Positions 11,007 through 61,591 of a DNA stretch of 64,000 bases are shown here, piece after piece. Source of the stretch: Candidatus Kaiserbacteria bacterium (GTDB lineage Bacteria > Patescibacteriota > Minisyncoccia > Phycocordibacterales > Phycocordibacteraceae). The notes below the pieces were generated by a model that ran no database searches, was not told where the DNA came from, and worked only from the letters and a program-made list of their open reading frames with translations. Every line of letters begins with the position of its first letter. Positions within the stretch are counted from its first letter, which is position 1. The stretch spans positions 96,250 to 160,249 of the forward strand of contig CAWEXP010000010.1 of NCBI GenBank assembly GCA_963813065.1, read 5' to 3'. A program made the translations under genes and the position numbers.

Positions 11007-11021
11007 GTTATAGTGCACACC

Positions 11022-23200: not shown

Positions 23201-26200
23201 GCCGCACAGATTGGCGGAAACACCAAGTTCGTCATCGACCACAGCGGTAGCGTGGGCATTGGCAACAACAATCCGGGCAAGACGCTCGATGTCACAGGCA
23301 CCACGCGCATCTCGGGCGTGCTCACGCTCTCTGGGCTCGGCTCGCCCTGCGTCGGCGCGCAAGCTCTGCAGGCTGACTCCTTGGGCAATATTTCCTGCGG
23401 TTCTATTTCAACCACGGGCATCTCGAGTGCCGGTGGCTGGACCACCAACAATGTCGGTCTCGTGACGCTCTCGACTAGCACCGACGCCGTTGCGCTTGGC
23501 GCGACCTCCACTCCGTATGCCAAGTTCGTCGTCATCGGCAGTAAGACCGCGAGCACCACACTCGCCATCATTCCTTTCGCCGGACAGACCGCGAACATTC
23601 TCGATCTCTACAACAACAGCGGCAACCTTTTCTCGGTCATCACCGGCAATGGCAATATCGGCATCGGCACCTCTACTCCGGCCTCGAGCGTAGATATTTA
23701 TGCCACCGACGCGCTCCACTTGCCGGTGGGCACGAGCGCACAGCGCCCCGCGATGGCGCTCGCCGGTCAGGTCCGCTACAACACCACGACGCACCAGTTC
23801 GAGGGCTTCGGCGATAACTCGGTCTGGCAAGGGCTCGGTGGCGTCATCAACGCCGCGCAGACCAGCTACATCACGGCTGACGCCTCCGACTTCCTCCACT
23901 TCGTCACCGCTTCCATCGAGCGCATGACCATCGCGAGCAATGGGAATGTGGGAATTGGAAGCACCTCGCCCTACGCCGCGCTCTCTGTCTCCACTTCGAC
24001 TTCGTATTACGCCGGCCAAACCCTCTTCGCCATTGCGAACTCCGCGAGCTCGACGCTCCTCTCGGTACTCGGCAATGGCAACGTCGGCATCGGCACCACG
24101 ACTCCCGGTACGCTGCTCGGCGTCCAAGGGACTGGCGTATTTGCAGGCAATCTCTATGCGACCAATATCGTCGCGACTTCGTCAATCACTGCACCGAGCC
24201 TCACGCTCGCCTCCGCTCTCACCGTCCCCAACGGCGGCACGGGCCAGGTTTCGTTCCCCTCCGGCAACCTTATATATGGAGCGGGCACGGGCGCTCTGCA
24301 ATCGGCCGCCACCACCACCCTCACTACCGGCGGCGCGCTCTCGTTCTCGGCAAATCCTGTCATCATTGGTGCCTCTTCACCATCCCTCTCGCTTTCTAAT
24401 AACTCCACTCTCACCACCTCGGGCAACACCCTCGGCATCAACCTCGCGAATCCGAACATTTACACCGCGCTCCAGACCTTCGCCAATGCCTCCTCGACCC
24501 TCTTCTCCTCCACCTACGCCTCCTCGACTAACGCCTTCTTCGGCACTTTGAGCGTCGGCGGCTCTGCGACGATTAGCTCTCTCTCGGTGGGGAATCTGAA
24601 CGGACTCCTTTCCGGCACGAACGGGGCAGTCTCTGCTACGGCCAACGGCACCAACGGCCAAGTGCTCGCTATGAGCGGCGGCATACCGACCTGGGTCGCC
24701 TCGACCACACTCGCCAACATCAGCGGCACGCTCGGTGTCGCGAGCGGCGGCACAGGAAGCGCAGTCACCTTCACCCAGGGCTCCGCGATATTTGCGGGAG
24801 CGGGCGGTATCTATTCGCAAGACAACGCCAACTACTTCTATGACGCGATTAATCATCGCCTCGGTCTCGGGACAACATCACCCTACGCCCAGCTCTCCGT
24901 CTTCGCGGGTGGCGACTATCTCTCGCACGCGTTCTCGACACTCTTCGCCATCGGCTCTTCCACGGCAGGCACAGCGACCACCACGCTATTCTCCGTCGAT
25001 AGCGCGGGCAATGTGAACGAGGGTACCGCGGCCGCGACCACGACTATCGCAGGTGGCCTCTTCGTCACTGGCACGGCGGACGTGGAGAACTCCATACTCG
25101 GCAGCCTCACCTTCGCGAACGACGCGGGCGCTGGTTTGAGCTGGATGAATCTCCCCCTCCTCTCCGCAGCCGCCGCCACGCCCGAGAGCTACTCCGCGAG
25201 CATCGCCGGCACGCCCATCCTCACTGTCTACGGCACCTCAAACGGCTCTGGGGGCGTCGCCTCCTACGGTGTCGGCATCGGGACGACGGTACCCCTGTCA
25301 AAGCTTGATGTAAATGGCGGTGTGGCAATCGGTGCGTATGCCGGCGCTAACGCCGCGCCGTCGAACGGGATGATAATAAGCGGCAACGTCGGCATCGGCA
25401 CTACCTCGCCCTACGCAAATCTCTCGGTGATGGCGGGCGGCGACTACGCAAATCACGCACCCTCGACGGTATTTGCGATTGGTTCTTCGACCGCAGGCAC
25501 GGCGACGACGACGCTGTTTAGCGTGAACTCGAACGGGAATGTGAATGCGCTCGGCTATTTGCGGGTGGGATCGACTGCAACACCTGCGAACACGACCGCA
25601 GGCGACCTTACCGCCACGCGACTTTCTATTGGCAACAGTTCGCTGAGCAATGCCGCGACTGACTTTGGTCTTGTGACAGGGACGATGAGCGCAACCTCGG
25701 GCGGCGATATTGGCTTCTATATCAATCCAACTATCGCACCCGTCTCTGACTCAAGCGCCGAGTTCCGCGCCTTCAACATGAACGCGACGATAAATGCCGC
25801 AGGCATCAACTTCACCGGCTCTAACCTCACCTCTCCAGAAGCGCTCCGTAACGAGGTTCGTGTCACTAACTCCGGCAATATAACCGAGGTGCATGGCGCG
25901 ACGATGTACGGTCTCGTCCTCGGGAGTGCTGCTGCAACCATGGGCACGGTGACGGCGGTGACCGGGATATATGTGCGCGCGGTAGACTCCTTCAGCAACG
26001 CTCTCACATCAACAATCTCTAATGCTTATGGCATCCGCATATCCAACAATTCCAACTCGGGGACCGGGCCGCTCACGTACACTAACCAGGCAGGACTCAC
26101 GGTAGAGGCGCAGACCACCGCGACCAACAACACCGGCATTCTGCTCGGTACCGCCACCATCCCCACCGGCAACTTCGGCATCTATAACTCCTCGACCAAT

Positions 26201-29200
26201 AACAACTACTTCGCGGGCAACCTTGGTGTCGGCGTCACTTCGCCCAGCTACAAGCTCGACGTCGCGGGATTCATCAACACCGACCAGTACAGCGGCTACA
26301 AGCAGGCGGGAAATACGGTCTTGTATGCGAGCACGACGAACGCGAGTCTTGCGGTGGGTGCATCGAGCGCAGCTGCATGGATGGCGGCGAGCTCCACACT
26401 TCTTTACAATATCGCTATCGGCAGTGGCGCACTCAACACAGCTCCCACTTCTGCCGGTACGGCACAGTTCAACACTGCCATTGGTGCCAACTCGCTGTTG
26501 AGGCAACACCACGGGAAATAGAAACTTCGGGTTGGGGTTCAGTGCGCTCAACCTCAACACGAGTGGTTCCTACGACACAGGGATTGGTTACCTCGCCCTT
26601 AGCACCAACATTGCTGGTTCGAACAGCATCGGTATCGGCGGCAATGCTCTTCGTTTCAACACTGCCACAAATAATATTGTTGCTATAGGTCATGATGCGG
26701 CGTGGGGCAACACTGTCAGTTACTCAAACCAAGGCGGTACCTATATTGGTTATCAGTCTGGAGCTAATGCTTCTACCAACTCCGACTACAACACATTCTT
26801 GGGCTACCAGTCCGGTTTTGGAGTGACAACAGGTAATGACAATATTATCCTCGGCGTGAACCCTAATACGGGAGGTGGCAATAATCTCACCACTGGCGCC
26901 AATAACATCTTGATTGGCTACAACGCCATTGCGCCCTCGGGAGCCGCCGCCAACAACCAGCTCAACATCGGCAACTTCCTCTTCGGCACGGGGCTCACGG
27001 CAACTTCGTCTTCGACTTCGCTGCCCACGGCGCTCACCGGCAACTTGGGCCTCGGCACCTCCACTCCCTCTTCGACTCTCTTCGTGCAGAACAATTACGG
27101 TGCCGGCCCCGCCTTCACCATCGCCTCCTCCACCAACTCCTCGGGCACCACTGCCAACACCCTCCTTACTGTCTTGAATAATGGCAACGTCGGCATCGGG
27201 ACGACCTCGCCGCTCACCTCGCTCGATGTCGGCGGCCAGGTCACCTACGTCGGCCCATTCTCCGCCTCCAACATCCCGGTCGCTTCGTTCTCTGCGAACT
27301 CCAATGCGGTATCAGGGGTCCAGTTTACCAACGTCAACACCGGCACTGTTGCAGACTTCCGCTTCGCGATTGCCGACCAGACCGGCAACTACACTGCGCT
27401 CACGATGCCTTCCACCGGCAACGCCGCTGCTACCGTCTTTGGCCTCGCGCGAAGCACGGCGACGTTCCTCTTCAATAACGGCGGCACTACGCGCGCCTTC
27501 GGCATCGGGACGCTCGGTGCAAACGATCTCGTGCTCGGCACCAACGGCACTGATCGCCTCCACATCACCTCCGCCGGCAACGTCGGCATCGGCACCACCT
27601 CACCCTACGCCAATCTATCGGTGATGGCAGGGGGGAATTATGCGAGCCTCGCGCCAAGCACGGTCTTCGCGATTGGTTCGAGCACGGCGGGCACAGCGAC
27701 GTCGACACTATTCAGTATCAATAGCTCTGGTCTAGTGACAAATAATGGGAGCGAGACTATCGCGGGTAAACTTGGGATAAACAACACCAACCCGCAATAC
27801 ACTCTCGACGTCGCGGGCTTCATCAACACCGACCAGTACAGCGGCTACAAGCAGGCGGGGAACACCATTCTCTATGCGAGCACGACCAACAGCACGCTCG
27901 CCGTTGGTGCCTCAAGTGCGGCGGTATGGATGGCAGCCTCCTCGACGCAGTGGTATGACACAGCGGTCGGGTATGGCGCACTTGCTACGACACCCACCAC
28001 GGGCACAGCACAATATAACTTCGCGATCGGTTACCAAACCCTCAATTCCAACACTGCTGGACTCGGCAATACGGCGATTGGAATGCAATCCTTGCTAAAC
28101 AACAGCACTGGTTCCAATAATATTGCCATGGGTGGTGCTACTCTTGGTCAGAATACTACTGGCAGCAACAATACAGCTGTCGGTGTGAGTGTACTTCGTT
28201 ACAACACGCTCGCAGCAAACTCGACTGGTTTCGGTGCATACGCCGGATACGGTAACGCGCTCTCATACTCAAACACCGGCGGCACCTACATCGGCTTTAG
28301 AACAGGGTATTTTGCCTCCACCAACTCCGACTACAACACCTTCCTCGGATACCAGGCGGGGTATGACGTTACGACTGGCAATGACAACATAATCATAGGT
28401 GCGAACCCGAACACGAGTGGCTCCCACCTCACCACGGGGATGAACAACATCCTCATCGGGTACAACGCCATCGCGCCCGAGGGAGCGGCCGCGAATAACG
28501 ACCTCAACATCGGCAACATCATCTTCGGCACCGGGCTCACCGCGACGAGCTCGGCGACCACGGTGCCGACCGCGCTCTCGGGGCTCATCGGTATCGGGCA
28601 CGAGCACGCCGTGGGCGAATCTCTCAGTACAGAGCAATTACGGTAGCAGTGGGGTCGGCGCGACGACGACTCTCTTCGCCATCTCCTCATCCACCAATGC
28701 GAGCGGGAGCACGAGCAACGGCCTCTTCATCGTGCAAAACACACCCTATACCAATTCCAACGTGCGTGTGCTTGTCAACGAGAACCAACTACTAAACGTC
28801 AATGACACGATGGAGGTTAACGGCACGCTGAACGTCAATGCGCTCACTATCAACCAGGCGAGTCTCATCGGCAACACCAATGGCTACAGCTGGGTACGCG
28901 GCGCGGCCGCGCAGGGGATTGCTTTCCTCGTGAACGGCACGACTGGTGCCACAGCACCTACTGGCGCCGCAGCAGTCATCACTTCGGGAGGGAACGTCGG
29001 CATCGGGACGACGACTCCCGCATATCCTCTGGATGTAGTGGGAAGCGGCGAGCAGTTCGAGAACACATACCTTTCGTTGAATCCGTATGCGAGCACCAAC
29101 GCACAGATCTCAGTGAGCGGCGGCAGGGCTTACTTCGGCTATGACAGTTCGAACGGGAATGCGGTCGTACAGGGAGCTGGCGGCAAGGGAATCGAGTTTA

Positions 29201-32200
29201 ACGTCAGTAACTCCACTTTCGCCTCCGGCACTGCGGCAGTCCTCAGCTCAGCCGGTAACCTCGGCATCGGGACGACATCGCCTTACGCCAATCTCGCCAT
29301 ACAGAATAATTACGGCTCCAACAACACGACGCTCTTCTCGATTGGCTCCTCGACCGCGAGGAACGGGAGCACGGCGAGTACGCTACTCAAGGTGAGCAAC
29401 ACCGGCGCACTCACCCTCGCCAACTTGGCAGGGAATGCGAACGGGGTGGTCTATCCAGACGCCAACGGCACCCTCAACGTCACCGCCGCAGGCGGTGCAG
29501 GCACGCTCTGCCTCATCGCGACCAACGGCGGCGTGCCCACCTGGGGCTCCTGCGCAGGCTCGGCCTCCACGGTCTGGAGCCAGCTCTCCAACCCCACCGG
29601 CAATCTCGCGCTCTCGATGGGCGCCAACACTACCACCTTCACGGCCCAGAACACGGGCAGCAATAACCCCTTCACCTTCGCCGACAACACCAGCAACGCT
29701 GGCACGGGCATCCTAGTCAATATCGCGAGTGCGGCCTCCTCGGCCATCACGCCCTTCCAGGTCTCGGCGGTAGGGAATCCGGCGTTGACGGTCGCCGCCT
29801 CCGGCAACGTGGGCATCGGGACCACCTCTCCCTATGCCAATCTCTCGGTGATGGCGGGCGGTAATTATGCGAGCCAGGCGGCGAGTACGGTGTTTGCGAT
29901 TGGTTCCTCCACCGCGGGCACGGCGACGAGTACGTTGTTTAGTGTTAACAGCGCGGGGAATACGAACATTGCAGGGTCGCTGACAGTCGCGGGCAATCTT
30001 GTCTCGGTGCTCAATCAGACTGGCACTGGTAATGTGGTGTACTCGGCAAGCCCGAGCCTTACAGGAGGTCTATTCATTACGCCCGGTCCCCTTACGATGG
30101 GCACTTCAGGTCAACGAGGTGTTATTTCAGTACCACTTGCTAACCAAATACAGATAGGTCCGGCCGATGTTGATACGACTGCCGCTATGGGCGCCCAAAT
30201 CCTTCGTTCCCAAGGCGCGCTCGCAGGCGGCACGGCAGATCAGGCGGGCGTGAACTGGACATTCATCGCTTCGCCCGGCAAAGGTCTAGGTGCGGGCGGT
30301 TCCTTCGTCTTCCAGACGGTGCCCGCTGGTTTGGTGAGTAATACAGTCGTCAACGCGCCGGTTACAGCATTGGTTATTAATTCAGCGGGCCTCGTCGGCA
30401 TCGGGACTACATCCCCTTATGCGAAGCTCTCGGTGATGGTGGGAGGGAACTATGCGAGCCAGGCGGCGAGTACGGTGTTTGCGATTGGTTCCAGCACGGC
30501 GGGCACAGCGACGTCGACACTATTCAGTATCAATAGCTCTGGTCTAGTGACAAATAATGGGAGCGAGACTATCGCGGGTAAACTTGGGATAAACAACACC
30601 AACCCGCAATACACTCTCGACGTCGCGGGATTCATCAACACCGACCAGTACAGCGGCTACAAGCAGGCGGGGAATACGGTCTTGTATGCGAGTACGACGA
30701 ACGCGAGTCTTGCGGTGGGTGCATCGAGCGCAGCTGCATGGATGGCGGCGAGCCCGACCCTTTTACAGAATGTTGCCATTGGAGTCGGAGCTCTTGCGGC
30801 AACTCCGGCTGTGGGCTCACCTGGCGACCAGTACAACACGGCAATTGGCTATAACGCGCTCAATGCAAATACCACCGGCTCGTACAACTTCGCTCTCGGG
30901 TCTTGGGCGCTCCTCAACAATACAAGCGGTGTACGCAATACCGCTCTCGGTACGAGTGCTCTCTACACAAACAACGGTTCATACAATTCCGCATTTGGCA
31001 TGAATGCTCTTTATTCCAATACCACTGGCTCCAACAACACAGTTTTCGGTTATTCGGCAATTCGTTATGCATCCGCGGTAAACAACGTTACTGCAATCGG
31101 TTATCAAGCTGTAAGTGGGGGTACCACCTTCTCCAATCAAGGCGGCACCTACGTCGGTTATGGTTCAGGCTATTCGGCGGGCACCAACTCCGACTACAAC
31201 ACCTTCCTCGGGTACCAGGCGGGGTACCCCAACACCACAGGATTCGACAACATCCTGATAGGGGCGCAGAAGAACACCATCGGGGCAGGGTACCTCTCCA
31301 CCGGCGGGGACAACATCGGCATCGGTTTTAACACTCTCTTCCCGAGCGCGACCGCCAACAACCAGCTCAACATCGGCAACTTCCTCTATGGCACGCTCCC
31401 TGCCACTACCACCGCCTCCACCTTCGGCCTGCCGACCACCGGCAACTTCGGTATTGCCACCACCACCTCCGCACTCTTCGGCATCCACGCCAACAACGGC
31501 GCGAGCTACTCCTCGCTCTTCATGATTGGTTCTTCTACCGCGAGTGCGACTACCACGCTCTTCACGGTCTTGAACACGGGCAGCGTCGGCATCGGCACCA
31601 CCAGCCCGCAGTGGCTGCTCTCGCTCTCCGGCGGTGGGCAGAGGATTAAGGAGACGAGCGACATCCTGAACGCGTTCTCGATAGAGAACTCGGTCGGCTC
31701 TACGACCGTCGCCGCCGATACGATCGACACGAGCGGCAACATCTTCTCGGTCGCGACCAGCTCCGGCACCGATTACTTCGACGTCGCGGCGAACGGTAAC
31801 ATCGCGCTCTCGACGAGCGTGTACTCGACCTGTAGCAGTCTCTCCACCAGCGGTGGCGTCATCCAGTGCTCGGTCTCTGATCAGCGATTGAAGCAGAACA
31901 TCACCACGCTCGCGCCAGCGACTGGCCTCGCCGCCATCGACGCATTGAATCCGGTTTCCTACACCTTCATCGACCCGACGCGTCCGCAGGGCACGCAGTA
32001 CGGATTGATTGCGCAACAGGTACAACAAGTGCTCCCGGCGCTCGTCGCCACTTCCTCGCCGACGGCGCTCACGCCCGACGGTACGCTGACCGTGAACTAT
32101 GACGGCCTCATCGCGCCGCTTATCGAGGCAGTCCAACAGCTCGACGCGCGGACGAAGGGGATTTCGAATTCGGCTTCAAGCACCGTGATGACCTTCGACA

Positions 32201-33600
32201 TCTCGGGCAACGTCGGGCTCGGCGTCGCACCGAGTGCCGCAGATAAATTGACCGTCGGCGGCAACATTTTCGCGCAGGCATACGAGGTGCCAGCCGGCAC
32301 GGTGACGGCGTATACGTTTGGCGCGGCAAGTGGAAGTCAGACTTCCAGTTCCGACGGAGGAAGTCAGACTTCCTTTGCCGCGCCGATACCGAGTGTGGTG
32401 CTTACGGCAGGTGGACGGGTCGACCTCTACAAGCTCGCAACCTACAATCTCTCGGGTATCTCCGCGCTTGCGGTGCGCCTCCAGACCGACGAGATGCGCC
32501 TGACCTCGCTCGAGGCACGCGTCGCAGAGCTCGAGAATGGTTCCATCGCCGTCTCGACCTCGACGCCGTTCTCCACCTCGACCCTCGCCTCCGCCTTCTC
32601 CGGCCTCGGCGCATACATCCAGCAGGGCATCGCGCAATTTGGCATCCTCGTCGCCGACCAGTTCGTCGCCGCGACCAACTCGGCGGGTACGAGCTCCGCG
32701 GGCACCGTGACGATTCCGGCCGGCAACACGGTCGCGGTGGTGACGAACGCGTACGTCAATCCGGCGTCCAAGATTTTCGTCACCTTCACTGCCTCGACCA
32801 CCGCCTCTTGGTACATCAGCGACAAGCAGAACGGCTCCTTCAAACTCATCCTCTCTGCGGCGCCGACGAGCGATATCTCCTTCGACTACTTCATCGTCCA
32901 GACGCAGGGCCAGATCGCGACCAGCACGCCCGTTTCTGAAGGAGGTCAGACCTTCACAAATCCTCAAGGTCTGACCTCCCAGCCCGTGATTACTCTGCTC
33001 GGCGACAATCCGCTCCATCTCTCGGTCGGTGGTACCTTCGTCGAGCCGGGCGTGAGCGTGCATGACTCTGATGGCACCAATGCGTACGTCACCTTCGTCA
33101 ATGGTGTGCAAGAAACCATTTCCTCGACGACGCTCGACACGTCGAGCCCGACCACTTATATCATCACGTACAGCGCGACCGACAGCTCGGGCAACACTGC
33201 GACCGCGCGCCGCTCGGTGATCATCGGCAATCCAGACGGAACCGTTTCTTCCGGCGCCGGTGGAGGTCAGACCTTAAATCCGAATCCTCAAGGTCTGACC
33301 TCCTCGGCACCGGCTGATACCACGCCACCCGTTGTCACTCTCAATGGTTCGGCGGCACTCACCACCTCGCAAGGCACGACCTTCACTGATCCAGGCGCAA
33401 CGGCAACCGATGATACCGATGGTGACCTGACCAGCAAGATTAAAGAAACGGGTACCGTCGACACGACAACCCTCGGCCTCTACACGCTGACCTACTCGGC
33501 CACCGACTCAGCAGGGAACACCGGTACCGCCTCGCGCGTGGTCTCGGTTGTCGCGGCTCCGAGTGCGCCAAGCGACGCTTCCACAACGCCCGCGGGTTAA
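20213..33600 (+). CDS. Giant (about 4,460 aa) HTH-TM-anchored, Gly/Thr/Ser/Ala/Asn-rich repetitive surface protein. It has tail-fibre-like repeats, an S74-type intramolecular-chaperone motif and two DUF5011 Ig-like domains. One gene, split by two frameshifts near 26500 and near 28600.
   Basis: ORFs 20213-26521, 26532-28646 and 28732-33600 carry the same repeat unit (GNVGIGTTSPYANLSVMAGGNYA...AGFINTDQYSGYKQAGNT(V/I)LYASTTN...) straight across both junctions; the reading frame just slips at GC runs. Other domains: HTH_17-like N-terminus plus TM (VFAVVAAFLVVGSGAFIAHAG); SDQRLKQNITTLAPATGLAAIDALNPVSYTFIDP...YGLIAQQVQQVLPALV near 31870; C-terminal DUF5011-like segments (PVITLLGDNPLHLSVGGTF...; PPVVTLNGSAALTTSQGTTF...TYSATDSAGNTGTASRVV). 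Confidence 0.7.
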
Positions 33601-33602
33601 AC

Positions 33603-34046
33603 ATGGAAAAAGATTTTGACGGCTGGAATGTGCTCAAAAAGTCGATACATGTGGAGCGGGGCGCCTTAAACGCGAATCAACGCGAACTCTGGTGGATATC
33701 ATTCGGCATGAATGTCGGTGTTGAGATTGATGGCAAAGATGAGAGCTATGAGCGACCCGGCATAGTGTTGAGGAGGTTCAACCGTGAAATGGCGTGGGTA
33801 ATCCCGACAACCTCACGAGAGAAGAATTTACCCTTTTACTCCCGTTTCTCGTACGAAGGGAAGGATTATTGGGCAGTACTTACTCAAGTACGAGTCGTTA
33901 GTACCAAGCGTTTCTTACGGAAGGTTGGGATGATATCTCAAGAACGTTTTTCTGAAATGCAGAAGAAGCTTGCGGAATTCGTTTTCTTTGATGAAAACGA
34001 ACGGAACCCCGCACGGGGCGGGGTTCCTCGGAGGCCGAAGCCGTAA
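33603..34046 (+). CDS. PemK/MazF-family endoribonuclease toxin-like protein (orphan; no adjacent antitoxin ORF)
   Basis: WWISFGMNVGVEIDGKDESYERPGIVLRRFNREMAWVIPTTSREK... follows the PemK/MazF SH3-like barrel pattern (GD-I-W-V-DF...RP-LVLS...V-P-TS). Its start sits 2 nt after the giant gene's stop. Confidence 0.5.
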   Translation: MEKDFDGWNVLKKSIHVERGALNANQRELWWISFGMNVGVEIDGKDESYERPGIVLRRFNREMAWVIPTTSREKNLPFYSRFSYEGKDYWAVLTQVRVVSTKRFLRKVGMISQERFSEMQKKLAEFVFFDENERNPARGGVPRRPKP

Positions 34047-34054
34047 TCAAGACT

Positions 34055-36139
34055 ATGATACTCCCCGCAACTAAAAAGTCAATGAAGGTGTGGATAGCAC
34101 TCGCGCTCCTCCTCTGCGGCGCGGCTTTCGCCGCGCCACACTCCGCTCTCGCCACCGAAGTGACGAAACAAGGTCCGACTACTAATGGTTTGGTTGGGTA
34201 TTGGAAGTTTGATGACGCGAGCGGTACCGTGGCCGCCGACAGCTCGGGCAACAGCAAGAAACTTACCTGCACTAGTACCGGATGGTCCAGAGGGAAGCTG
34301 GGGTCAGCAAGTGTTTTTGCTGGAAATAGCGCAAGTGTATGTGTGAGAAGTTCTGCGAGTGACTTTCAAGTACCAGGTGACGTCACCGTTTCGGCATGGA
34401 TATTTGCGACATCGACTGGTAGTGGACAGGAGATCGTCAGGAAGGGACAGCTGACCGATGAGCAGTATGGGTTACTCTACAATGGTTCGATAAAAAGTAT
34501 CGGTTTCCAACAATACAACGGTACAGCTTTCGAAGGTCCGGGTTCATTGGCGGGATCGGTGCCCCTCAACACGTGGGTTCAAGTTACCGCAGTTCGCAGT
34601 GGCACCACAGTGACTATGTATGTGAACGGTACGTCTAACGCTTCCGGAACAGTAGGGACTCCCGCGACTCCAACCAGCGGTCTTTCAATCGGATCAAACT
34701 CGGTTACAGGTGGACAGAACTTTGCCGGCTCCCTCGACGACGTCCGCATTTACAACCGCGCACTCTCCGCCGCCGAGGTGCAGGCGCTCTACAAGGCAGG
34801 CGAGGTAGACCTCAAACAGGGCCCGACTAACGGCGGCCTCGTTGGGTACTGGAAATTTGACGAGGGTGTGGGCACTAAGGCTACAGACTCCTCCGGTATT
34901 ATTGGCGATACACTCGGGTGTACCAGTTTCATCTGGACACCCGGCAAGCTTGGCGGAGCCATCCAGCTTAACGGCAACACGACGAGTTGGTGCCAACCGG
35001 CTTCAAATAATCGTCCCTCGCTTTCCCTAACGGGCAATATGACTACGAGCGTATGGATGTATTCAACTTCCACCTCTGCTATCCAGGGGGTCATTCGCAA
35101 TGGACAAGGAACGGATGAACAATATTCTATCTATTATGATGGCGGGAATCAGAGGATTGGATTTGGGTGGTATGACGGTAGTGCGTTCCAGGGCCTTGCC
35201 TCTACAGTGGGCAGTGTCCCTCGTAATCAATGGATACTAGTTACCGTAACGCGGACCGGCAGTGCGCTCGCTTTCTATGCGAATGGGGTGCCTGTCGGGA
35301 CAGCCACTTTCACCAGTGCACCAAATACGCCGAGTATTTTCACCATCGGCGGGACAAACAGTGGTAGCCAAGCCTTCGTCGGCAAGCTTGACGACGTCCG
35401 CCTCTACAACCGCGCGCTCTCCGCCGCCGAGGTGCAGGCGCTCTACAAGGCGGGCGAGACGAAAGCTCAGACCAGCTCCGCGCCCCTCACCAACGGCTCC
35501 ACTCTACAAAGCGGCCTCACTGGCCTCTGGACCTTCGACGGCAACGACTTCTCGATCCCGCAGGGTATTCTTGATAAATCCGGTAATGGCAACAGTGGTT
35601 ATTTCATTGGCGGCGCGACCTCCAGCGCCATAACGATAGGGAAGATGGGCCAGGCGTTGAAGTTTAATTCAGCGAGCAGTCAGAAAGTCTCGCTCTCAAA
35701 TCTACCAACGTCGGGTACGTCAAACTTCTCTATATTCGCGTGGGTCAACTCATCTACAGTTGGCACGAGAAAAGGAATCGTCGCATACGGGAGCAACACG
35801 ACAGATACTGGCGTCAATCTGTTTATAAACCCATCTAATCAAGTTGAATCGGATTTATCGGCCGATCCCGGTCCCAGCTCAACGGCAACTGTCACTGATG
35901 GTAAGTGGCATTTGGTCGGAGTGACAAATGCCGGCGGCACAATGCAAGTCTACGTTGATGGAGTGGCGAGTGGTTCAAGTCGAGCGAAGACTCCAAACAT
36001 AGTGTCAAGACCAAATTTCAATCTTATTGGTGAGGATTTCTTTCCCGCTTATTTCAACGGCTCCATCGACGACGTCCGCGTCTACTCTCGCGCTCTCTCC
36101 GCGTCCGAAATCAAGCAGCTCTACAACCTCGGCAAATAG
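34055..36139 (+). CDS. Secreted protein with three tandem LamG (concanavalin-A-like lectin, Laminin_G_3) domains
   Basis: Signal peptide; three repeats of LVGYWKFDE..G....DSSGN...(G)SLDDVR(I/L)YNRALSAAEVQALYKAGE. Confidence 0.6.
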   Translation: MILPATKKSMKVWIALALLLCGAAFAAPHSALATEVTKQGPTTNGLVGYWKFDDASGTVAADSSGNSKKLTCTSTGWSRGKLGSASVFAGNSASVCVRSSASDFQVPGDVTVSAWIFATSTGSGQEIVRKGQLTDEQYGLLYNGSIKSIGFQQYNGTAFEGPGSLAGSVPLNTWVQVTAVRSGTTVTMYVNGTSNASGTVGTPATPTSGLSIGSNSVTGGQNFAGSLDDVRIYNRALSAAEVQALYKAGEVDLKQGPTNGGLVGYWKFDEGVGTKATDSSGIIGDTLGCTSFIWTPGKLGGAIQLNGNTTSWCQPASNNRPSLSLTGNMTTSVWMYSTSTSAIQGVIRNGQGTDEQYSIYYDGGNQRIGFGWYDGSAFQGLASTVGSVPRNQWILVTVTRTGSALAFYANGVPVGTATFTSAPNTPSIFTIGGTNSGSQAFVGKLDDVRLYNRALSAAEVQALYKAGETKAQTSSAPLTNGSTLQSGLTGLWTFDGNDFSIPQGILDKSGNGNSGYFIGGATSSAITIGKMGQALKFNSASSQKVSLSNLPTSGTSNFSIFAWVNSSTVGTRKGIVAYGSNTTDTGVNLFINPSNQVESDLSADPGPSSTATVTDGKWHLVGVTNAGGTMQVYVDGVASGSSRAKTPNIVSRPNFNLIGEDFFPAYFNGSIDDVRVYSRALSASEIKQLYNLGK

Positions 36140-36161: not shown

Positions 36162-36900
36162 CTCCCATGTAGGGTTTCGTAAATCCTACATTCCGTCATT
36201 CAAGCCTGAATCCAGGTTCTAGGTCGCCCTGAGCATCCTTCAGATACTCGGCAAGCGCGCGAGGGTAATTCCCGAGCGCGTTCTTAAAAAGGGAAGTGGT
36301 AAGGACGGAAGGAAAATTTTTCTTGCCGGTGTAATCGAGATAACTGCTCCAGCGATAGGTGTCGAGATATTCCAAAGCTTTCTTTGCACTCTTGATGCCG
36401 TTCTTACTGCGCACGCGCCACTCCTCGGCGCCTTCGAGGTAGTCGAGCGGGTTAAGGTGGATATAGTGCAGGATGTAGTTGAACTGCGCGTCGCGCTCAA
36501 TCAATATTTTCTTCGTCCGCCCTTGGAAAAGAGTGCCCTTGCGCTCGTACCGTTCATTAAAGTAATTCGCATACCCGACATTGAGCTTGCGCAAGAATAA
36601 ACTCACTCCGCCTTCGATTTTTTCTGACAACAGCAGGTGATAGTGGTTCTTCATCAGGCACCACCCATGTATCTCCACAATCCGCTCTCGCTCAATGTAG
36701 GGTTTCGTAAATCCTACATCTGGCGCACAGCGACGCTCAGAGGCCGCAGCAGGTGAGCGGTCGTTGAATTGGTATAAGTTATGGATAAAACGAACGTAGT
36801 CGGAAGAATCAGAAAATAAGTGTCGCCCGTCAACTCCCCGATTGAGTGCATGATATAGCTCGGCCATATAGATGTAGGGTTTCGTAAATCCTACATTCAA
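36162..36900 (-). mobile_element. REPtron 2: RayT-type transposase with palindrome REP2 (TGTAGGGTTTCGTAAATCCTACA) at its 3' flank, 5' flank and inserted in-frame inside the gene
   Basis: REP2 copies at 36168-36190, 36696-36718 (internal; encodes APDVGFTKPYI, absent from copy 1) and 36873-36895. Confidence 0.65.
36196..36867 (-). CDS. REP-associated tyrosine transposase (RayT/IS200-like) copy 2. The likely start is MAELYHALNRGVDGR at 36867; the listed ORF starts at a TTG inside the upstream REP.
   Basis: HUH motif NHYHLLL and Y-motif DTYRWSSY; 55-60 percent identical to copy 1 outside the REP insertion. Confidence 0.75.
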   Translation of the reverse strand: MAELYHALNRGVDGRHLFSDSSDYVRFIHNLYQFNDRSPAAASERRCAPDVGFTKPYIERERIVEIHGWCLMKNHYHLLLSEKIEGGVSLFLRKLNVGYANYFNERYERKGTLFQGRTKKILIERDAQFNYILHYIHLNPLDYLEGAEEWRVRSKNGIKSAKKALEYLDTYRWSSYLDYTGKKNFPSVLTTSLFKNALGNYPRALAEYLKDAQGDLEPGFRLE

Positions 36901-39270: not shown

Positions 39271-40278
39271 ATGAAACCAATTCGAGTTGCGATAAATGGA
39301 TTTGGGCGGATCGGGCGAGCCTTCGTGCGGAGGAGCCAGGGGAGGAATATTGAGATTGTTGCGGTCAACGATCTCGGCTCGCTCGAGAATCTCGCGTATC
39401 TTTTGAAATACGACACGGTCTACAAACGCGCGGCATTTCCCGTTGAAGCAAAAGACGGTGCTTTGTGGATTGATGGGAAGGCCGTGAAGTTTTTGCAAGA
39501 AAAAGATCCCGCGCACTTGCCGTGGAAGGATCTCGACGTTGATGTCATCGTCGAGTCGACCGGATTTTTTACTGACTATGAGAAGGCGAAGGCGCACCTC
39601 GATGCGGGTGCGAAACATGTGGTGATTACCGCACCAGTGAAGGGAGAGTCGGAACTCGGCGCGACGGTGTTGATGGGGCTGAACGAAGAAAAAATAAAAT
39701 CCTGCCCGATCACGAGCAACGCCTCTTGCACCACCAACTCCGCGAGTCCGCTCATCGCGATTCTCGACGAGGCGATTGGTATCGAGAAGGCAATTCTCTC
39801 CACCACGCATGCCTACACTGCGTCGCAGGCGATTGTCGACGGTCCGAGCAAGAAGGACATGAAGGAAGGCAGAGCCGCGGCGCAAAATATCGTCCCGACC
39901 TCGACCGGTGCGGCCGTCGCGGTGACGCAGGCGTACCCCGCGCTCGTGGGGAAGTTTGACGGCATCTCGCTCCGCGTGCCGGTGCCTGCGGGCTCGATTG
40001 CGGACATCACTTTCATTGCGAAGCGGTCAACGAGCAAAGAAGAAGTAAATGAGATATTGCGCGCCGCCGCAACGGCGGCGCGCTGGGCTGGCATTTTCTC
40101 GGTTACCGAGGATGAGCTGGTTAGCAGTGACATCATCGGCGAGCCCTACGCCTCGATTGCCGACCTCGGGATGACGCGCGTGGTCGATGGCAATCTAGTG
40201 AAGGTGCTCGCCTGGTACGACAACGAAATGGGGTACACCGAAAGCCTCGTCCGGCACGTGCTCGCCACGGCGCAATGA
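39271..40278 (+). CDS. gap: Glyceraldehyde-3-phosphate dehydrogenase, type I
   Basis: INGFGRIGR NAD-binding motif, the catalytic Cys motif SNASCTTN, and WYDNEMGY. Confidence 0.9.
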   Translation: MKPIRVAINGFGRIGRAFVRRSQGRNIEIVAVNDLGSLENLAYLLKYDTVYKRAAFPVEAKDGALWIDGKAVKFLQEKDPAHLPWKDLDVDVIVESTGFFTDYEKAKAHLDAGAKHVVITAPVKGESELGATVLMGLNEEKIKSCPITSNASCTTNSASPLIAILDEAIGIEKAILSTTHAYTASQAIVDGPSKKDMKEGRAAAQNIVPTSTGAAVAVTQAYPALVGKFDGISLRVPVPAGSIADITFIAKRSTSKEEVNEILRAAATAARWAGIFSVTEDELVSSDIIGEPYASIADLGMTRVVDGNLVKVLAWYDNEMGYTESLVRHVLATAQ

Positions 40279-41441: not shown

Positions 41442-42315
41442 ATGGCACTCCTCGACACTGACATCCAAGCGCTCGAACAGAAGGCGGTCGAGATTCGTAC
41501 GACCGTCATCGAGATGCTCGTGTCTGCAGGGAGCGGACACACCGCAGGGCCACTCGATATGGCGGACATTTTCACTGCCTTTTATTTTCATATTCTCAAG
41601 CATGATCCGAAGAATCCGGCGTGGGAAGAACGTGATCGGCTGATTCTCTCAAATGGCCACATTGTCCCGGTGCGCTACGCGGCGATGGCGCACGCGGGCT
41701 ATTTCCCGGTCGAGGAGTGTTTGACTCTGCGGAAGTTCGGCTCGCGTCTCCAGGGTCACCCCGAGCGATTGCGTTTGCCTGGTCTCGAGACGACCTCGGG
41801 CCCACTCGGCGAGTGGCCTCTCGCAGGCCGCGGGCATCGCGTATGCGCTCCGCATGCAGGACACGGCGTATCAATTCAGAAGTTGGACACGCCGTGTCCA
41901 ACTTGGGAAACCGCGGTGTATTGCCTCACGAGCGACGGCGAGCACGATGCGGGCAACACGTGGGAGGCGGCGCTTTGGGCGGGGAAAAATAAATTATCGA
42001 ATCTCACCGCGCGTGGTCGATCGCAACAATATCCAGATTGACGGTATGACCGAGGACGTCATGCCGCTCGAACCTTTTGCCGATAAATATCGCGCATTCA
42101 ACTGGCACGTCATCGAGGTCGACGGTCACAACATCCGCGCATTCATTGAGGCCGTTGAAGAAGCGAAGGCGATCGAAGAGAAACCGACAATGATTATCGC
42201 GCACACCATCGCGGGCAAAGGCGTGAGAGAGATTGAAGGCGACTATCACTGGCACGGCAAACCGCCCACCGCTGAAGAAGCGAAACGATTCCTCGCTGAA
42301 ATTCACCATGCATAA
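41442..42315 (+). pseudogene. tkt: Transketolase N-terminal subunit (split TK), disrupted by three frameshifts and carrying a 25-bp REP1-like hairpin inside the coding sequence
   Basis: SGHTAGPLDMADIFTAFYF..., GHPE...PGLETTSGPLGE | GLSQAAGIAYALRMQD | AVYCLTSDGEHDAGNTWEAALWAGKNKLSNLTA | VDRNNIQIDGMTEDVM...FNWHVIEVDGHN alternate between two frames. Confidence 0.65.
41880..41904. repeat. REP1-related perfect palindrome AAGTTGGACACG-C-CGTGTCCAACTT inside tkt coding sequence
   Basis: 12-bp arms. Its core GGACACG.CGTGTCC is shared with REP1 of REPtron 1. It lies exactly where the tkt frame switches. Confidence 0.6.
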
Positions 42316-45308: not shown

Positions 45309-45942
45309 ATGTTTACGCTCGAAGTAACCCAGAGAAAGGCGGGTAGCCCAGGCGCGCTCCGGCGCGCCGGGTCGGTCCCTGCGGTCGTCTATGGCGCCCA
45401 CCAGGCGTCAACGCCGATTGCGGTCGATGCCCGCGCATTCGACAAGGCCTTCAAGGTCGCCGGCGAGTCGTCGGTCATTTCGCTCACCGGTCTCGGCGCG
45501 GCTATTCCCGTACTCGTCCAGGAAGTTGATCTCGACCCGCTGACCTACCTCCCGCGCCACATCGATTTCTACGCCATCACCAAGGGCGAGAAGGTCGAGG
45601 TCGCCGTGCCACTTGTCTTCGTCGGCGAGTCGGCGGCGGTCAAGGGCGGCGCCAATCTCATCAAGGTGCTCCGCGAGCTCGAGGTCAAGGCCGACCCGAT
45701 GAATCTCCCCGCCTCCTTCGAGGTTGAATCTCGCGCTCCTCGTCAACATCGACGACCAAATTCACGCCGGCGATCTCAAGCTCCCGGCGGGTGTCGAGCT
45801 CATGGTTGAGCCCGAGGAAGTCGTTGCACTCGCGCAGGAAGTGGTTGAGGAGAAGGAGGAAGTCGCACCGGCTGACCTCTCGGCTATCGAGGTGGAGAAG
45901 AAGGGCAAGGAGGAGGCTACAGAGCCCGAAGCCAAAATTTAG
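45309..45942 (+). CDS. rplY: Ribosomal protein L25/general stress protein Ctc, with one frame shift near 45729
   Basis: N-terminal L25 domain ...RRAGSVPAVVYG. The C-terminal LALLVNIDDQIHAGDLKLPAGVELMVEPEEVVA continues in the +1 frame. Confidence 0.75.
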
Positions 45943-45984
45943 GACATCCGATGTCCTAAATGCATTTGGACATCGGATGTCCTA
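45940..45984. repeat. Pair of REP1-family palindromes in opposite orientation (BIME-like doublet): TAGGACATCCGATGTCCTA and TGGACATCGGATGTCCTA
   Basis: Copies at 45940-45958 and 45967-45984, immediately after the rplY stop. The loops CCG and CGG are inverted relative to each other. Confidence 0.55.
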
Positions 45985-46008
45985 ATTCGCGTGCTAAACT
46001 AGCCGGAC

Positions 46009-55462: not shown

Positions 55463-55537
55463 CGCCGCCCTAGCTCAGTTGGTAGAGCGCCACTTTTGTA
55501 AAGTGGATGTCCCAGTTCGAATCTGGGGGGCGGCTCC
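55463..55537 (+). tRNA. tRNA-Thr (anticodon TGT)
   Basis: 75 nt with a cloverleaf that folds: acceptor GCCGCCC/GGGCGGC, D-arm GCTC...GAGC, anticodon stem CCACT/AGTGG with loop TTTGTAA, T-arm CCCAG-TTCGAAT-CTGGG, and an encoded CCA. Confidence 0.8.
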
Positions 55538-58562: not shown

Positions 58563-59342
58563 ATGAATCCCGGCCGCCTCCACCCGATCACGATTGCTAT
58601 TCGTGATATCGCGGATATCTTCGGCCGGATGGGATTCGACATTGGGTACGGGCCGGAGCTCGAAGACGAGTTCCATAACTTCGACGGACTCCGCATGTTT
58701 CCTGATCACCCTGCGCGCGACATGCAGGACACCTTCTGGCTAAAACCCGCCCTGGGCGGGTTCGCCCGACCCGACTCGTCTGACGAGTCGGGTTTAGGGG
58801 CAAGGATACCGAGAGTGCTGCGCACGCACACGACCTCGGTCACCATTCGCGAGCTCGAGCAGATGGCGAAAGAGGGCACGATCTCAGCACGAATGATTAA
58901 TCCGGGGAAAGTGTTCCGTAACGAAGCTACGGACCAATTCCACGAAGCGCAGTTCTATCAGCTCGACGGTTTTGCGGTTGGGCCAATCGGTTCGGTTACG
59001 CTCGCTGATTTGAAGGGCACCTTCGACCGTTTCTATCGCGAATATCTCGGCCCCGAGGCGAAGGTGCGTTTCCGCCCCAGCTATTTCCCCTTCGTGGAGC
59101 CGGGCGTCGAGATCGATGTGTGGTTTGCGCCCGCGCAGAAGTGGCTCGAGATGGCGGGTGCGGGCATGCTTCATCCCGACGTGCTCCGTAACGCCGGACT
59201 CGATCCGCAAAAGGTCGCGGGCTTCGCCTTCGGCGGCGGACTTGAACGTTTGCTGATGGTGAAGTACGGCATCCCTGATGTGCGACTCTTCCACTCGGGC
59301 GACATTCGTTTCGTTTACGGTTTCCCCGAAAAGAAAATATGA
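58563..59342 (+). CDS. pheS: Phenylalanine--tRNA ligase alpha subunit (short form lacking the N-terminal about 85 aa), with a roughly 20-aa in-frame insertion encoded by nested palindromes
   Basis: HPITIAIRDIADIF..., class II motifs FRPSYFPFVEPGVEIDV and GFAFGGGLERLLM. The insertion KPALGGFARPDSSDESGLGARIP falls between DTFWL and RVLRTHTTS. Confidence 0.85.
   Translation: MNPGRLHPITIAIRDIADIFGRMGFDIGYGPELEDEFHNFDGLRMFPDHPARDMQDTFWLKPALGGFARPDSSDESGLGARIPRVLRTHTTSVTIRELEQMAKEGTISARMINPGKVFRNEATDQFHEAQFYQLDGFAVGPIGSVTLADLKGTFDRFYREYLGPEAKVRFRPSYFPFVEPGVEIDVWFAPAQKWLEMAGAGMLHPDVLRNAGLDPQKVAGFAFGGGLERLLMVKYGIPDVRLFHSGDIRFVYGFPEKKI
58743..58795. repeat. Nested palindromes inside pheS coding sequence: AACCCGCCC-t-GGGCGGGTT and CCCGACTCGTC-t-GACGAGTCGGG, enclosed by AAACCCG...CGGGTTT
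   Basis: Perfect 9-bp and 11-bp inverted repeats read directly from the sequence. Confidence 0.6.
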
Positions 59343-61591
59343 AAGTCTCCCGCGCGTGGTTGCAGAACTATTTTGATACGCCGCTTCCGAGCGTGGCGGA
59401 GATTGCCGATGCCTACACTTTTCACGCATTTGAAATAGAAGAAACCGATGGCGACGTGCTCGATGTAAAAGTGCTCCCGAATCGCGCGGCGGATTGCCTC
59501 TCAGTGCGCGGCTTGGCGAAAGAGCTCTCGGCCATTCTCAATATTCCGCTCAGGCACGATCCGCTCCGCGACCCTCTCTCCGCATTTCCGAAAACCAAAG
59601 AACTCACCGTCGCAATAGATGACCCGAAGAAATGCCTGCGCTACATGGGCGCGCTGGTGAAGGGCGTGCAGGTTGGCTCCTCGCCCGCGTGGCTTAAAGA
59701 AGCGCTTGAATCAGTCGGCCAGCGTTCAATCAACAACGTCGTCGACGCGACAAACTATGTGATGCTCAATCTCGGCCAGCCTCTGCACGCGTTCGATGCA
59801 GGGAAACTAGACGATTGTGTGCATGAAGGAAAGTACGGCATCGGCGTGCAGATGGGGTGGAACGATAGAGACTTCACGACGCTCTCGGGAGACACGGTGC
59901 CACTTTCTGACAACACACTCATTATTGTGGATGACAATTGTGGGACGCCGCTTGCCATTGCGGGCATCAAGGGCGGCAAAGCCGCTGAAGTCTCTGCGGA
60001 AACAAAAAACATCATCGTTGAGTCCGCGAATTTCGACGGCACTTTGGTGCGTCGCACCGCCCAAGCTTTGAAACTGTTTACCGATGCATCGCTCCGCTTC
60101 CAGAATCGCCCGTCGCCCGAGCTGGTGGCGTACGGCATGCGCGATGTACTTGCGCTTATCAAAGATATTGCGGGTGGGGAGGTGGTGGGCGTTGTTGACG
60201 AATACCCCAAGCCGGTTAAGCCCTACAAGACCGGCGTCTCGGCGAGCGAGATACACTCGCTTCTCGGTAGAGCATTTTCAGAAAAAGAAATCTCAGATGT
60301 TTTTGAACGATTGAACCTGCCTTTTGAACTCGTCGACCCGCTCCAGCGTATTCTCGACGTCGCGCAGACGCAGGTGGGCAAGCCCTATAAACACGGAGCA
60401 TCAGTGCTTCGCGATTCTCCTGACGCGTTCGACTGCTCCTCTCTCATTGCGTGGTGTTTCGCGCAGGCGGGCATCGGCGGCGTTCCGCGTATCTCGATTG
60501 ATCAATATGTCTGGAGCGATCCGATCGAAGAAAAAGATCTTGCGGCAGGTGACTTGATATTTTTCAGCACACCGACCAGCTATGTGTGGCACGAGTCGCA
60601 GGAATATCTGCCGGGGACAAAGGTGCCAGGCGGAATCAGCCACGTTGCGCTCGCGCTCGGTGACGGGAAGATGATTCATGCGCACGGCAAGGACGAACAT
60701 GCGGTTGTCATCCACGTCATCGCGGATTCACCGCGTCGAGGTGAGATTATCGGGTATCGTCGCCCCCGCGGACTCGGCGAAAAACGATTTGCAGTCACAG
60801 TCCCTTTCGAGCGCGTCGATCTGCGTATCAAAGAGGATTTGATAGAAGAAGTTGGTCGCATCCGCGGCTACGACACAATCCCCGCATCTGATGTAGGACT
60901 TACGAAACCCTACACGCCAGATCAAGCCAGATATAGAGGTATTGAGCGGATGAAGGACGAGCTCGTTGCGCAAGGATTTACGGAAGTTTCTACACAATCG
61001 TTTGCAAAAAAAGGCGACATCGCGCTTGCGAACCCACTCGACAAAGCGAAGCCGTTTCTCCGCACAACGCTGGAAGAAAACTTGAAAGAGGCCCTCGCCA
61101 AGGCCAAGCTATACGCGCCTCTCGTGCTCACGCCGGGCGAGAAGCCGAAACTTTTTGAAGTGGGGACGGTTTTCCCTAAGACAGGAGAATATATGGAATT
61201 GCGAACTACTGATGGTTCAGTCACGAATCTCTCAACACAAGAGATTGACGCTCCAGACTATGTGCCGGTGCGCTACGAGCTTGGGGCGTACAAGTCGTTT
61301 TCTGTCTACCCGTTCATCACCCGCGATATCGCATTTTGGGTTCCCGAGGGAACAACTGCCGATGTTGCAGGGGCCGCTCTCGACGATGTATTACGTACAA
61401 GCTCCTCCTTCAACCTCGCGATAAAAACGCAGATATGGCCACTCGACAAATACGAGAAGGATGGACGTACGTCTTTCGCGTTTCGAATCATTTTTCAACC
61501 AGTCGAAAAAACCCTTACTGATGAGGAGGTAAATACGGTGATGGATAAGATTTACGCGGTACTCAAGAACGAGGGTTTCGAGGTTCGCTAA
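59339..61591 (+). CDS. pheT: Phenylalanine--tRNA ligase beta subunit, carrying an in-frame NlpC/P60 (C40 papain-like peptidase) domain within its B5 domain and an in-frame REP2 copy
   Basis: B3/4 region (LHAFDAGKL...IAGIKGG); B5 halves FERLNLPFELVD and RFAVTVPFERVDLRIKEDLIEEVGRIRGYDTIP; C-terminal FDX-ACB. 4-nt overlap with the pheS stop. Confidence 0.85.
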   Translation: MKVSRAWLQNYFDTPLPSVAEIADAYTFHAFEIEETDGDVLDVKVLPNRAADCLSVRGLAKELSAILNIPLRHDPLRDPLSAFPKTKELTVAIDDPKKCLRYMGALVKGVQVGSSPAWLKEALESVGQRSINNVVDATNYVMLNLGQPLHAFDAGKLDDCVHEGKYGIGVQMGWNDRDFTTLSGDTVPLSDNTLIIVDDNCGTPLAIAGIKGGKAAEVSAETKNIIVESANFDGTLVRRTAQALKLFTDASLRFQNRPSPELVAYGMRDVLALIKDIAGGEVVGVVDEYPKPVKPYKTGVSASEIHSLLGRAFSEKEISDVFERLNLPFELVDPLQRILDVAQTQVGKPYKHGASVLRDSPDAFDCSSLIAWCFAQAGIGGVPRISIDQYVWSDPIEEKDLAAGDLIFFSTPTSYVWHESQEYLPGTKVPGGISHVALALGDGKMIHAHGKDEHAVVIHVIADSPRRGEIIGYRRPRGLGEKRFAVTVPFERVDLRIKEDLIEEVGRIRGYDTIPASDVGLTKPYTPDQARYRGIERMKDELVAQGFTEVSTQSFAKKGDIALANPLDKAKPFLRTTLEENLKEALAKAKLYAPLVLTPGEKPKLFEVGTVFPKTGEYMELRTTDGSVTNLSTQEIDAPDYVPVRYELGAYKSFSVYPFITRDIAFWVPEGTTADVAGAALDDVLRTSSSFNLAIKTQIWPLDKYEKDGRTSFAFRIIFQPVEKTLTDEEVNTVMDKIYAVLKNEGFEVR
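60335..60790 (+). other. NlpC/P60 peptidase domain (about 150 aa) embedded in pheT between the two halves of the B5 domain
   Basis: VGKPYKHGAS...PDAFDCSSLIAWCFAQAGIGGVPRISIDQY...LAAGDLIFF...GGISHVALALGDGKMIHAHG matches the NlpC/P60 pattern (G-PY-GG...FDCSGL...GI-LPR-S--Q...GDL-FF...HVGIY-G-G--IHA), with a candidate Cys-His-His triad. Confidence 0.6.
60892..60914. repeat. REP2 copy (TGTAGGACTTACGAAACCCTACA) inserted in-frame inside pheT, encoding DVGLTKPYT
   Basis: 22 of 23 identical to the reverse complement of REP2 flanking REPtron 2. Confidence 0.6.

Follow-up and report, generated by a model that had tools for sequence, protein, structure and literature searches.

How does a short repetitive palindrome come to lie within an essential translation gene, and what keeps it there? 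This question is raised by a stretch of 64,000 nucleotides (nt) from a Candidatus Kaiserbacteria genome (GenBank assembly GCA_963813065.1, contig CAWEXP010000010.1, positions 96,250 to 160,249; hereafter the window), in which pheT, the gene encoding the phenylalanine-tRNA ligase beta subunit (59339-61591, forward strand), carries a copy of a repeat termed REP2. Repetitive extragenic palindromes (REPs) are "extragenic" by name, and their role and movement are debated; here, they are found inside essential translation genes of genomes with almost no intergenic space. The pheT sequence is probably a dispersed, slightly decayed GTAG-tagged REP hairpin, whose arrival was linked to a RayT-like transposase and which persists as a passenger.

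The core of the pheT copy, TGTAGGACTTACGAAACCCTACA, occupies window positions 60892-60914 on the forward strand; its reverse complement recurs, with one base changed, as three copies identical to one another at 36168-36190, 36696-36718, and 36873-36895. With up to three mismatches allowed, the 64-kb window holds exactly four REP2 sites, against 0.00 expected from 100 dinucleotide-preserving shuffles of the same DNA; a chance match was therefore rejected, and the near-identity reported in a preliminary description of this locus proved real. A repeat finder extended the match between the pheT copy and the copy within the transposase gene (36696-36720) to 25 nt, of which 24 are identical, written GATGTAGGAyTTACGAAACCCTACA. 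The dispersed copy, GATGTAGGACTTACGAAACCCTACA (60890-60914, forward strand), encodes D518-Y525, and the codons GAT GTA GGA CTT ACG AAA CCC TAC ACG are read as DVGLTKPYT (D518-T526). As the preliminary description had proposed, the reading is in frame within an intact PheT of 750 amino acids (aa), the position falls just after B5 (Pfam places the end of this domain at residue 511, and its last helix in a structure model is 498-513), and the same motif recurs inside the transposase, where the internal copy gives DVGFTKPYI in the same orientation and register.

The host gene is intact. pheT reads through, agrees with its orthologues to the left and right of the hairpin, and encodes a protein with the Pfam domains B3_4, B5, tRNA_synthFbeta, FDX-ACB, and NLPC_P60. 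Its closest relatives are PheT proteins of Paceibacteria, the nearest being 72% identical, and judged by the names of these relatives the organism belongs to Paceibacteria (Patescibacteria/CPR). The preliminary description had looked to orthologues conserving DVGLTKPYT in genomes without REP2 as the evidence that would speak against a REP2 origin; this peptide is conserved in none of 120 PheT orthologues. The locus thus shows the features of an intragenic selfish palindrome: an intact open reading frame (ORF) with all domains, in-frame translation, and a peptide absent from 120 orthologues.

Could the peptide rather than the DNA have been selected? The same class of peptide does appear in many translation-related enzymes, yet selection on a V-G-F/L-T-K-P-Y motif, or an accidental likeness, is a very improbable account. 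In addition to the absence of expected chance matches, the identity between copies includes synonymous positions, and identical copies lie outside genes beside the transposase gene. Moreover, the peptide variants VGHPMSY, VGRTTSY, VRLTKSN, and VGLPKSY change the chemistry of the segment while always keeping DNA complementarity. A protein-level motif was rejected on this ground, since the variants follow complementarity and not chemistry.

The REP2 unit consists of 25 nt, A-TGTAGGGTTT-CGT-AAATCCTACA-T, and when redundant sequences from the window and related genomes are removed, 41 of the 42 copies left have the palindrome A-TGTAGG...CCTACA-T. One end bears a GTAG tag (A-T-GTAG-G...C-CTAC-A-T), which defines the major REP superfamily (PMC3733652). 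Three of the four window copies are found at a gene for a RayT-like Y1 (HUH) transposase (36196-36867, reverse strand), which encodes 223 aa from MAELYH and contains an HYH motif and the conserved segment LHYIHLNP. One master copy lies 5' of this gene (36872-36896, forward strand) and ends 5 nt upstream of the ATG; the other lies 3' of it (36167-36191, forward strand), 5 nt after the stop codon. The third copy is inside the gene (36695-36719, forward strand), where it encodes DVGFTKPYI in a loop between helix 1 and the HUH strand. The 5' flanking copy reads NVGFTKPYI only if the ORF is extended upstream, and orthologues do not have this extension.

Alignment with orthologues revealed a conserved Tyr region in addition to the HYH motif. 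The protein scores 28.9 bits against Pfam Y1_Tnp (gathering cut-off 23) and 36 bits against the curated RayT model of NCBIfam, REP_Tyr_transpos (NF047646; cut-off 80), which it does not pass. Judged from these profile scores, it is a divergent relative of RayT and not its curated equivalog. The attributes of a REPtron seen in REP2 are a stem-loop palindrome, a GTAG tag, and copies flanking a Y1-type gene. All four copies are singlets, and the inverted doublet characteristic of REPINs is not seen among them. Annotation calls for caution here: the recorded gene call for the transposase (protein P0177; NCBI, ENA) comprises 152 aa instead of 223; it starts with MKNHYH, immediately past the internal hairpin, and thus lacks 71 N-terminal residues that are conserved in orthologues.

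Compared with its relatives, the pheT copy shows signs of decay. Folded as single-stranded DNA, the three REP2 master copies at the transposase gene form an 11-bp stem with a 3-nt loop at -6.2 to -6.5 kcal/mol (5' copy, -6.5; 3' copy, -6.2) with z-scores of -4.9 to -7.2; the pheT copy reaches -3.4 kcal/mol in the same folding, with only the outer 6-bp stem left. It carries two substitutions relative to the family consensus, both of which change an amino acid (F to L; I/M to T), and it alone among the 42 non-redundant family copies is missing the outermost A-T pair.

Where in the protein does the hairpin sit? Its codons fall within the segment P515-P527 (60881-60919, forward strand). In an AlphaFold2 model of PheT (mean predicted local distance difference test score, pLDDT, 85.5), residues 514-528 form a coil between helices 498-513 and 529-544, and mean pLDDT drops to 74 for residues 511-520 and 61 for residues 521-530. 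According to this model, the hairpin-bearing segment is a permissive inter-domain linker. The stretch between GYDxIP and PDQARYRG is hypervariable in sequence across orthologues and measures 10 aa in approximately 115 of 120 (e.g., ATELPPISGT), versus 11 aa here (ASDVGLTKPYT); in alignments to solved structures, the window linker is 2 aa shorter than that of Thermus thermophilus PheT. Therefore, the hairpin codons replace native linker codons: as read from the alignments, approximately eight REP-derived codons have taken the place of seven native ones, and the linker is a net 1 aa longer. The preliminary description had spoken of a 9-aa insert; a clean insertion of this length was rejected on the basis of the orthologue alignment and the alignments to solved PheT structures.

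Two other peculiarities of PheT were encountered. An NlpC/P60 cell-wall hydrolase-type domain is inserted within B5 (residues 347-456, window 60377-60706, Pfam 4.8e-13), is common to only 7 of the 120 best PheT homologues (P0001-P0005, P0028, and P0068), and folds as a separate, confident domain in the structure model. At the post-B5 site, four scattered orthologues (P0002, P0030, P0062, and P0089) have a 12-aa linker of the type PFD[SAP]AQ[GD]KP, encoded by CCCTTCGACNCNGCTCAGGGTAAACCG (L036 2581, L039 11111); no further copies were found within the loci of its carriers, and no clear palindrome is present in it.

The post-B5 linker is one of at least three hairpin sites in PheT, the others being located near residue 80 and in the first FDX-ACB helix. 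In the linker of P0024, which belongs to a lineage without the NlpC/P60 insert, the perfect palindrome CATGTAGGACATCCGATGTCCTACATG, another TGTAGG...CCTACA hairpin, shares both the register of the window copy and its distance to PDQ. The first FDX-ACB helix contains palindrome-compatible 9-mers in 12 of 121 orthologues, with at least seven different stems, and the palindromes are perfect in the DNA of four (GTAGGGTTT/AAACCCTAC, GTAGGACGT/ACGTCCTAC, GTAGGACAT/ATGTCCTAC, and GTTCGACTT/AAGTCGAAC). These hairpins occupy identical codons with no change in length, and the stretch is 1 residue shorter than in human mitochondrial PheRS. The site near residue 80 varies from 33 to 50 aa, with many variants being hairpin-encoded; P0002, the closest relative of the window PheT, has a 45-nt perfect palindrome there.

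Hairpin-bearing PheT sequences are scattered in a quick neighbour-joining tree. A pairwise comparison is instructive: the pheT genes of P0045, which has a hairpin, and P0019, which has none, are 88% identical overall, but identity falls to 55-80% in 60-nt windows over approximately 145 nt around the hairpin. Third codon positions are 58% identical in the divergent patches and 88% outside them, and synonymous changes affect conserved flanking codons as well. Such a pattern suggests that a patch bearing the hairpin was brought in through allelic recombination.

Observations of this kind allow a different history, in which an older hairpin, either ancestral or imported with a foreign pheT patch by homologous recombination, was later converted to REP2 through a length-preserving exchange, the copy never having been newly inserted into native linker sequence. 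Both the P0045/P0019 patch and the presence of different hairpins at identical codons in scattered lineages, without length change, are in its favour. On the other hand, only 2 of 121 orthologues have a hairpin at the post-B5 linker, with none in the three nearest relatives, P0002, P0003, and P0005; the exchange activity is hypothetical; and the first hairpin at any site needs another origin. This history has a modest probability.

REP2-like hairpins are not confined to PheT. Scans for TGTAGGRYTTNNNAARYCCTACA returned 35 loci from one genome per species and 67 loci from a metagenome collection, and related metagenome-assembled genomes contain at least six hairpin loci each. From these, 19 gene sites in Patescibacteria contigs were confirmed by Pfam, with each gene site counted once; the contigs counted are metagenomic and stem from relatives of the window organism, not from that organism itself. 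The host genes serve tRNA charging (IleS, LeuS in its editing domain, ValS, ArgS, and PheT at a second site) and RNA modification (TrmD, Dus, TGT at two sites, and KsgA/RsmA), and further include a MurD-like ligase, ATP synthase gamma, HolB, DnaX, a phosphoribosyltransferase, and a Wzy-type protein. The hairpin in TrmD amounts to a net 8 additional aa relative to solved TrmD structures, and that in Dus lies in an inter-domain linker with no added length. In a HolB-like protein (L092 5816-6628), the perfect REP2 peptide DVGFTKPYM is accompanied by a degenerate HVGCTKPHI approximately 70 residues upstream, which suggests, from the peptides alone, two hairpin sites of different age in one gene.

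All 19 sites are read in a single register, T|GTA|GGN|NNN|loop|NNN|NCC|TAC|A, yielding peptides of the V-G-x-x-K-x-Y type. Part of this bias is trivial since TAG or TAA closes three of the six hairpin frames. Another stop-free register, CR[VI]YETLH, was used at none of the 19 Pfam-confirmed sites. The only long ORFs in that register (L005, L089, L110, and L061 at 1355) have no Pfam match and a junk composition. At the 13 sites with an ACG or CGT loop, the absence of the third open frame has a probability of (2/3)^13 = 0.005 if the three open frames are equally likely. The register in use stays open when the palindrome is flipped, which may explain the bias. An orientation bias is supported only weakly: read on the coding strand, the loop is ACG at 10 sites and CGT at 3. 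For the two window copies, sharing orientation and frame has a chance probability of 1/3, because only three of six frames are stop-free. Thus, of the frame and orientation bias that the preliminary description had read from those two copies, the frame component is borne out across gene sites, and the orientation component is weak. Comparison of GC skew with hairpin orientation and replication direction was uninformative.

Hairpins at fixed sites are constant in sequence. Between two genomes, orthologues of Dus are 67% identical and those of LeuS 72%, yet their hairpins agree at 23 of 23 positions, while the 75-nt blocks beside them are 45-75% identical. Six aligned transposase genes carry the internal hairpin in the same loop, with a stem that matches the flanking copies and a loop that may be flipped; the internal and flanking hairpins vary in concert from genome to genome, and they do so also in one genome whose hairpin type differs. 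In the DNA of L111, where the loop peptide is not of the V-G type, TATGGACATCGTAAGTCCATA occurs three times in identical form, once on each side of the transposase gene and once within it, and the codon register is another one. Among 120 transposase homologues, 97 loops were located by pattern: 32 of these carry hairpin peptides of the V-G type, and most of the others carry recurring short peptides such as MDIVSPY, GFVNPH, and DLRNPY, with similar short peptides also occurring at the residue-80 site of PheT. By this comparison, elements of this type have an intragenic hairpin as one of their conserved parts, present in most members of the transposase clade. Such constancy requires that the DNA is under strong selection, that hairpins arrive repeatedly at the same specific sites, or that resident hairpins are converted to the current family. 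The co-variation of internal and flanking hairpins and the identity across diverged orthologues are also what conversion of an older hairpin would leave behind.

A further account takes the hairpin to be a functional cis element kept by selection, acting as a DNA or mRNA structure in the binding of the RayT-like protein, in a translation pause between PheT domains, or in mRNA stability. The recurrence of hairpins at three fixed PheT positions, the full conservation beside far less conserved flanks, and the retention of the internal hairpin in most of the transposase clade all speak for such a role. Against it, there is no hairpin at the post-B5 linker in approximately 98% of orthologues or at the FDX-ACB site in 90%, pairs have been lost from the stem of the pheT copy whichever strand is folded (-3.4 kcal/mol), the host genes are functionally unrelated, and no Rfam family matches the hairpin, the only Rfam match in the window being a tRNA at 55464-55535. 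Because the stem is degraded and 98% of orthologues do without a hairpin at this site, a functional role in pheT is unlikely, and the cis-element account as a whole is distinctly so.

The preferred reading, a transposase-linked REP hairpin persisting as a passenger, can be set out as follows. A REP2 copy would have reached the pheT linker through the spreading process of its own family, presumably the transposase-dependent cutting and joining of single-stranded DNA hairpins. The arrival would have overwritten native linker codons rather than adding nine residues. Persistence would be favoured by the register of the copy, in which the loop is one codon and stem codons pair with reverse-complement codons, and which alone among the registers contains no stop whichever way the palindrome is turned; the inter-domain linker, being unstructured and variable in sequence, would tolerate the product. 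PheRS probably gains nothing from the hairpin. More generally, in Patescibacteria genomes as gene-dense as these, permissive sites in long housekeeping genes are probably a main niche for REP hairpins, with such sites being used repeatedly and resident hairpins being kept identical to the current family of the genome.

The arrival itself could have taken any of three routes: insertion followed by trimming, one-step overwriting of native codons, or overwriting of an older hairpin. The latter two are favoured on present sequence evidence because of the recurrent, length-neutral sites in PheT and the constant hairpins elsewhere. Several points weigh against the passenger reading. There is no empty-site allele of the window pheT in the data, the closest relative being only 72% identical, and the three routes are therefore not distinguishable. 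Only four REP2 copies are visible in the window, three of them at the transposase gene. That enzyme, whose activity is putative, falls below the curated RayT cut-off (36 versus 80 bits). Finally, the perfect conservation of hairpins at orthologous sites could mean function instead of passengers.

A bolder proposal, which we regard as doubtful, is that REP hairpins in Paceibacteria may spread not by ordinary insertion but by transposase-linked, length-preserving overwriting, with allelic recombination moving hairpin-bearing patches between lineages. Here, a hairpin cassette would overwrite either some 25 nt of a coding sequence or an older hairpin, and fixed intragenic hairpins, including the one inside the transposase gene, would be kept identical to the current family of the genome. 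If true, this would constitute a new propagation mode for repeats associated with HUH transposases, and minimal genomes would have a new way of varying their protein linkers.

Beyond REP2, the window is rich in hairpins. Those with a three-base loop (11-bp-stem class) number 18 versus 2.35 expected, and perfect stems of at least 10 bp number 5 versus 0.025 expected. Perfect palindromes with 11-bp stems and 3-nt loops lie in pheS (58769-58793) and in the genes for transketolase (41880-41904) and GAPDH (40059-40083), in other codon registers and with no GTAG tag. The product of a second RayT-like gene (15627-16271, reverse strand) scores 35.6 bits against Pfam Y1_Tnp and 46 bits against the RayT model of NCBIfam, short of the cut-off of 80. 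On both sides of this gene stands a hairpin other than REP2, TAGGACACGGCGTGTCCTA (15605-15623 and 16302-16320). Related to this hairpin is an intergenic inverted doublet of the REP1 family, ATTTAGGACATCCGATGTCCTAAAT / ATTTGGACATCGGATGTCCTAAT, at 45937-45986, which looks like a REPIN. A 47-nt REPIN-like doublet, TACGGAAGTCAGACTTCCGTA CCAG GTAGGGAAGTCTGACTTCCGTA (13052-13098), is translated within the ORF for the C-terminal part of SecA (12504-13604) and falls exactly between two stretches matched by the hidden Markov model (residues ~183-198); a related hairpin, GGAAGTCAGACTTCC, occurs at 32328-32350 in a repeat protein of 1622 aa.

Certain features of the contig bear on the quality of the assembly and on its composition. 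secA (11013-13604) is split over three frames (11013-11897, 11909-12850, and 12504-13604), and the transketolase gene (41442-42315) over two, with a switch near 42010. Either the assembly has indel errors at these places or these essential genes are truly frameshifted, and in view of the splits, indel errors may exist elsewhere in the assembly. Positions 20213-36139 are occupied by three very large ORFs (2102, 704, and 1622 aa) with internally repeated GNVGIGTTSP-type units; after them comes a protein of 694 aa that has three LamG-like repeats ending in '...DDVR[IV]YNRALSAAEVQALY'. All of these probably encode surface proteins, and the GC skew of the region is dominated by them. A search for a plasmid origin gave no megablast match.

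If these patterns hold, the hairpins would map naturally where aminoacyl-tRNA synthetases and tRNA-modifying enzymes tolerate insertions. Likewise, a short hairpin together with a 223-aa enzyme would represent a tractable system for asking by what means RayT-type proteins copy or exchange hairpins.

How do these hairpins compare with known systems? Intragenic GTAG-tagged REPs have been reported in several species, their hosts there being replication and repair genes, and different REPs have been found at about the same site of Xanthomonas recB; the same work mentions the palindromic elements of Rickettsia (Di Nocera et al., 2013; PMC3733652). REP2 resembles these GTAG-tagged REP/RAYT systems, or REPtrons, in its GTAG-start stem-loop, its flanking Y1/HUH gene, and the G-T pairs in its stem. 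It differs in that its host belongs to Patescibacteria, outside the phyla listed in that study (PMC3733652). Further differences are the exclusive use of a single codon register with little or no gain in protein length, the third hairpin inside the transposase gene that is conserved across the clade, and the predominance of aminoacyl-tRNA synthetases and tRNA/rRNA modification enzymes among the hosts. Literature searches yielded no report of REP/RayT hairpins inside Patescibacteria genes. Nor did the searchable literature contain an exclusive codon register, near length-neutral recurrent sites, hairpins conserved across diverged orthologues, or a hairpin inside the transposase gene.

Rickettsia palindromic elements (RPEs), reportedly described by Ogata and colleagues in 2000, are said to be selfish DNA lying in frame within protein-coding genes. 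They are approximately 100-150 bp long, add 30-50 residues, bear a CGTC tag, and have no dedicated transposase. The two systems have in common that in-frame palindromes are tolerated at surface-permissive positions in essential genes of a reduced genome; at 25 nt, with a GTAG tag, a RayT association, and a net gain of 1 aa, REP2 is nonetheless not an RPE. In the REPIN-RAYT systems of Bertels and Rainey, as here, a RayT that is single-copy and passed on vertically is coupled to a repeat family, with long persistence and co-evolution, but the mobile unit of REPINs is an intergenic inverted doublet, whereas REP2 copies are singlets, several of which lie inside genes. An analogy can also be drawn with uptake signal sequences and DNA uptake sequences (USS/DUS), short genome-wide motifs that likewise reside in genes, in preferred frames and at less constrained protein positions, with no change in length. 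These measure 9-12 nt, are not linked to a transposase, and are not necessarily hairpins. The class of intragenic REPs is already known from other phyla.

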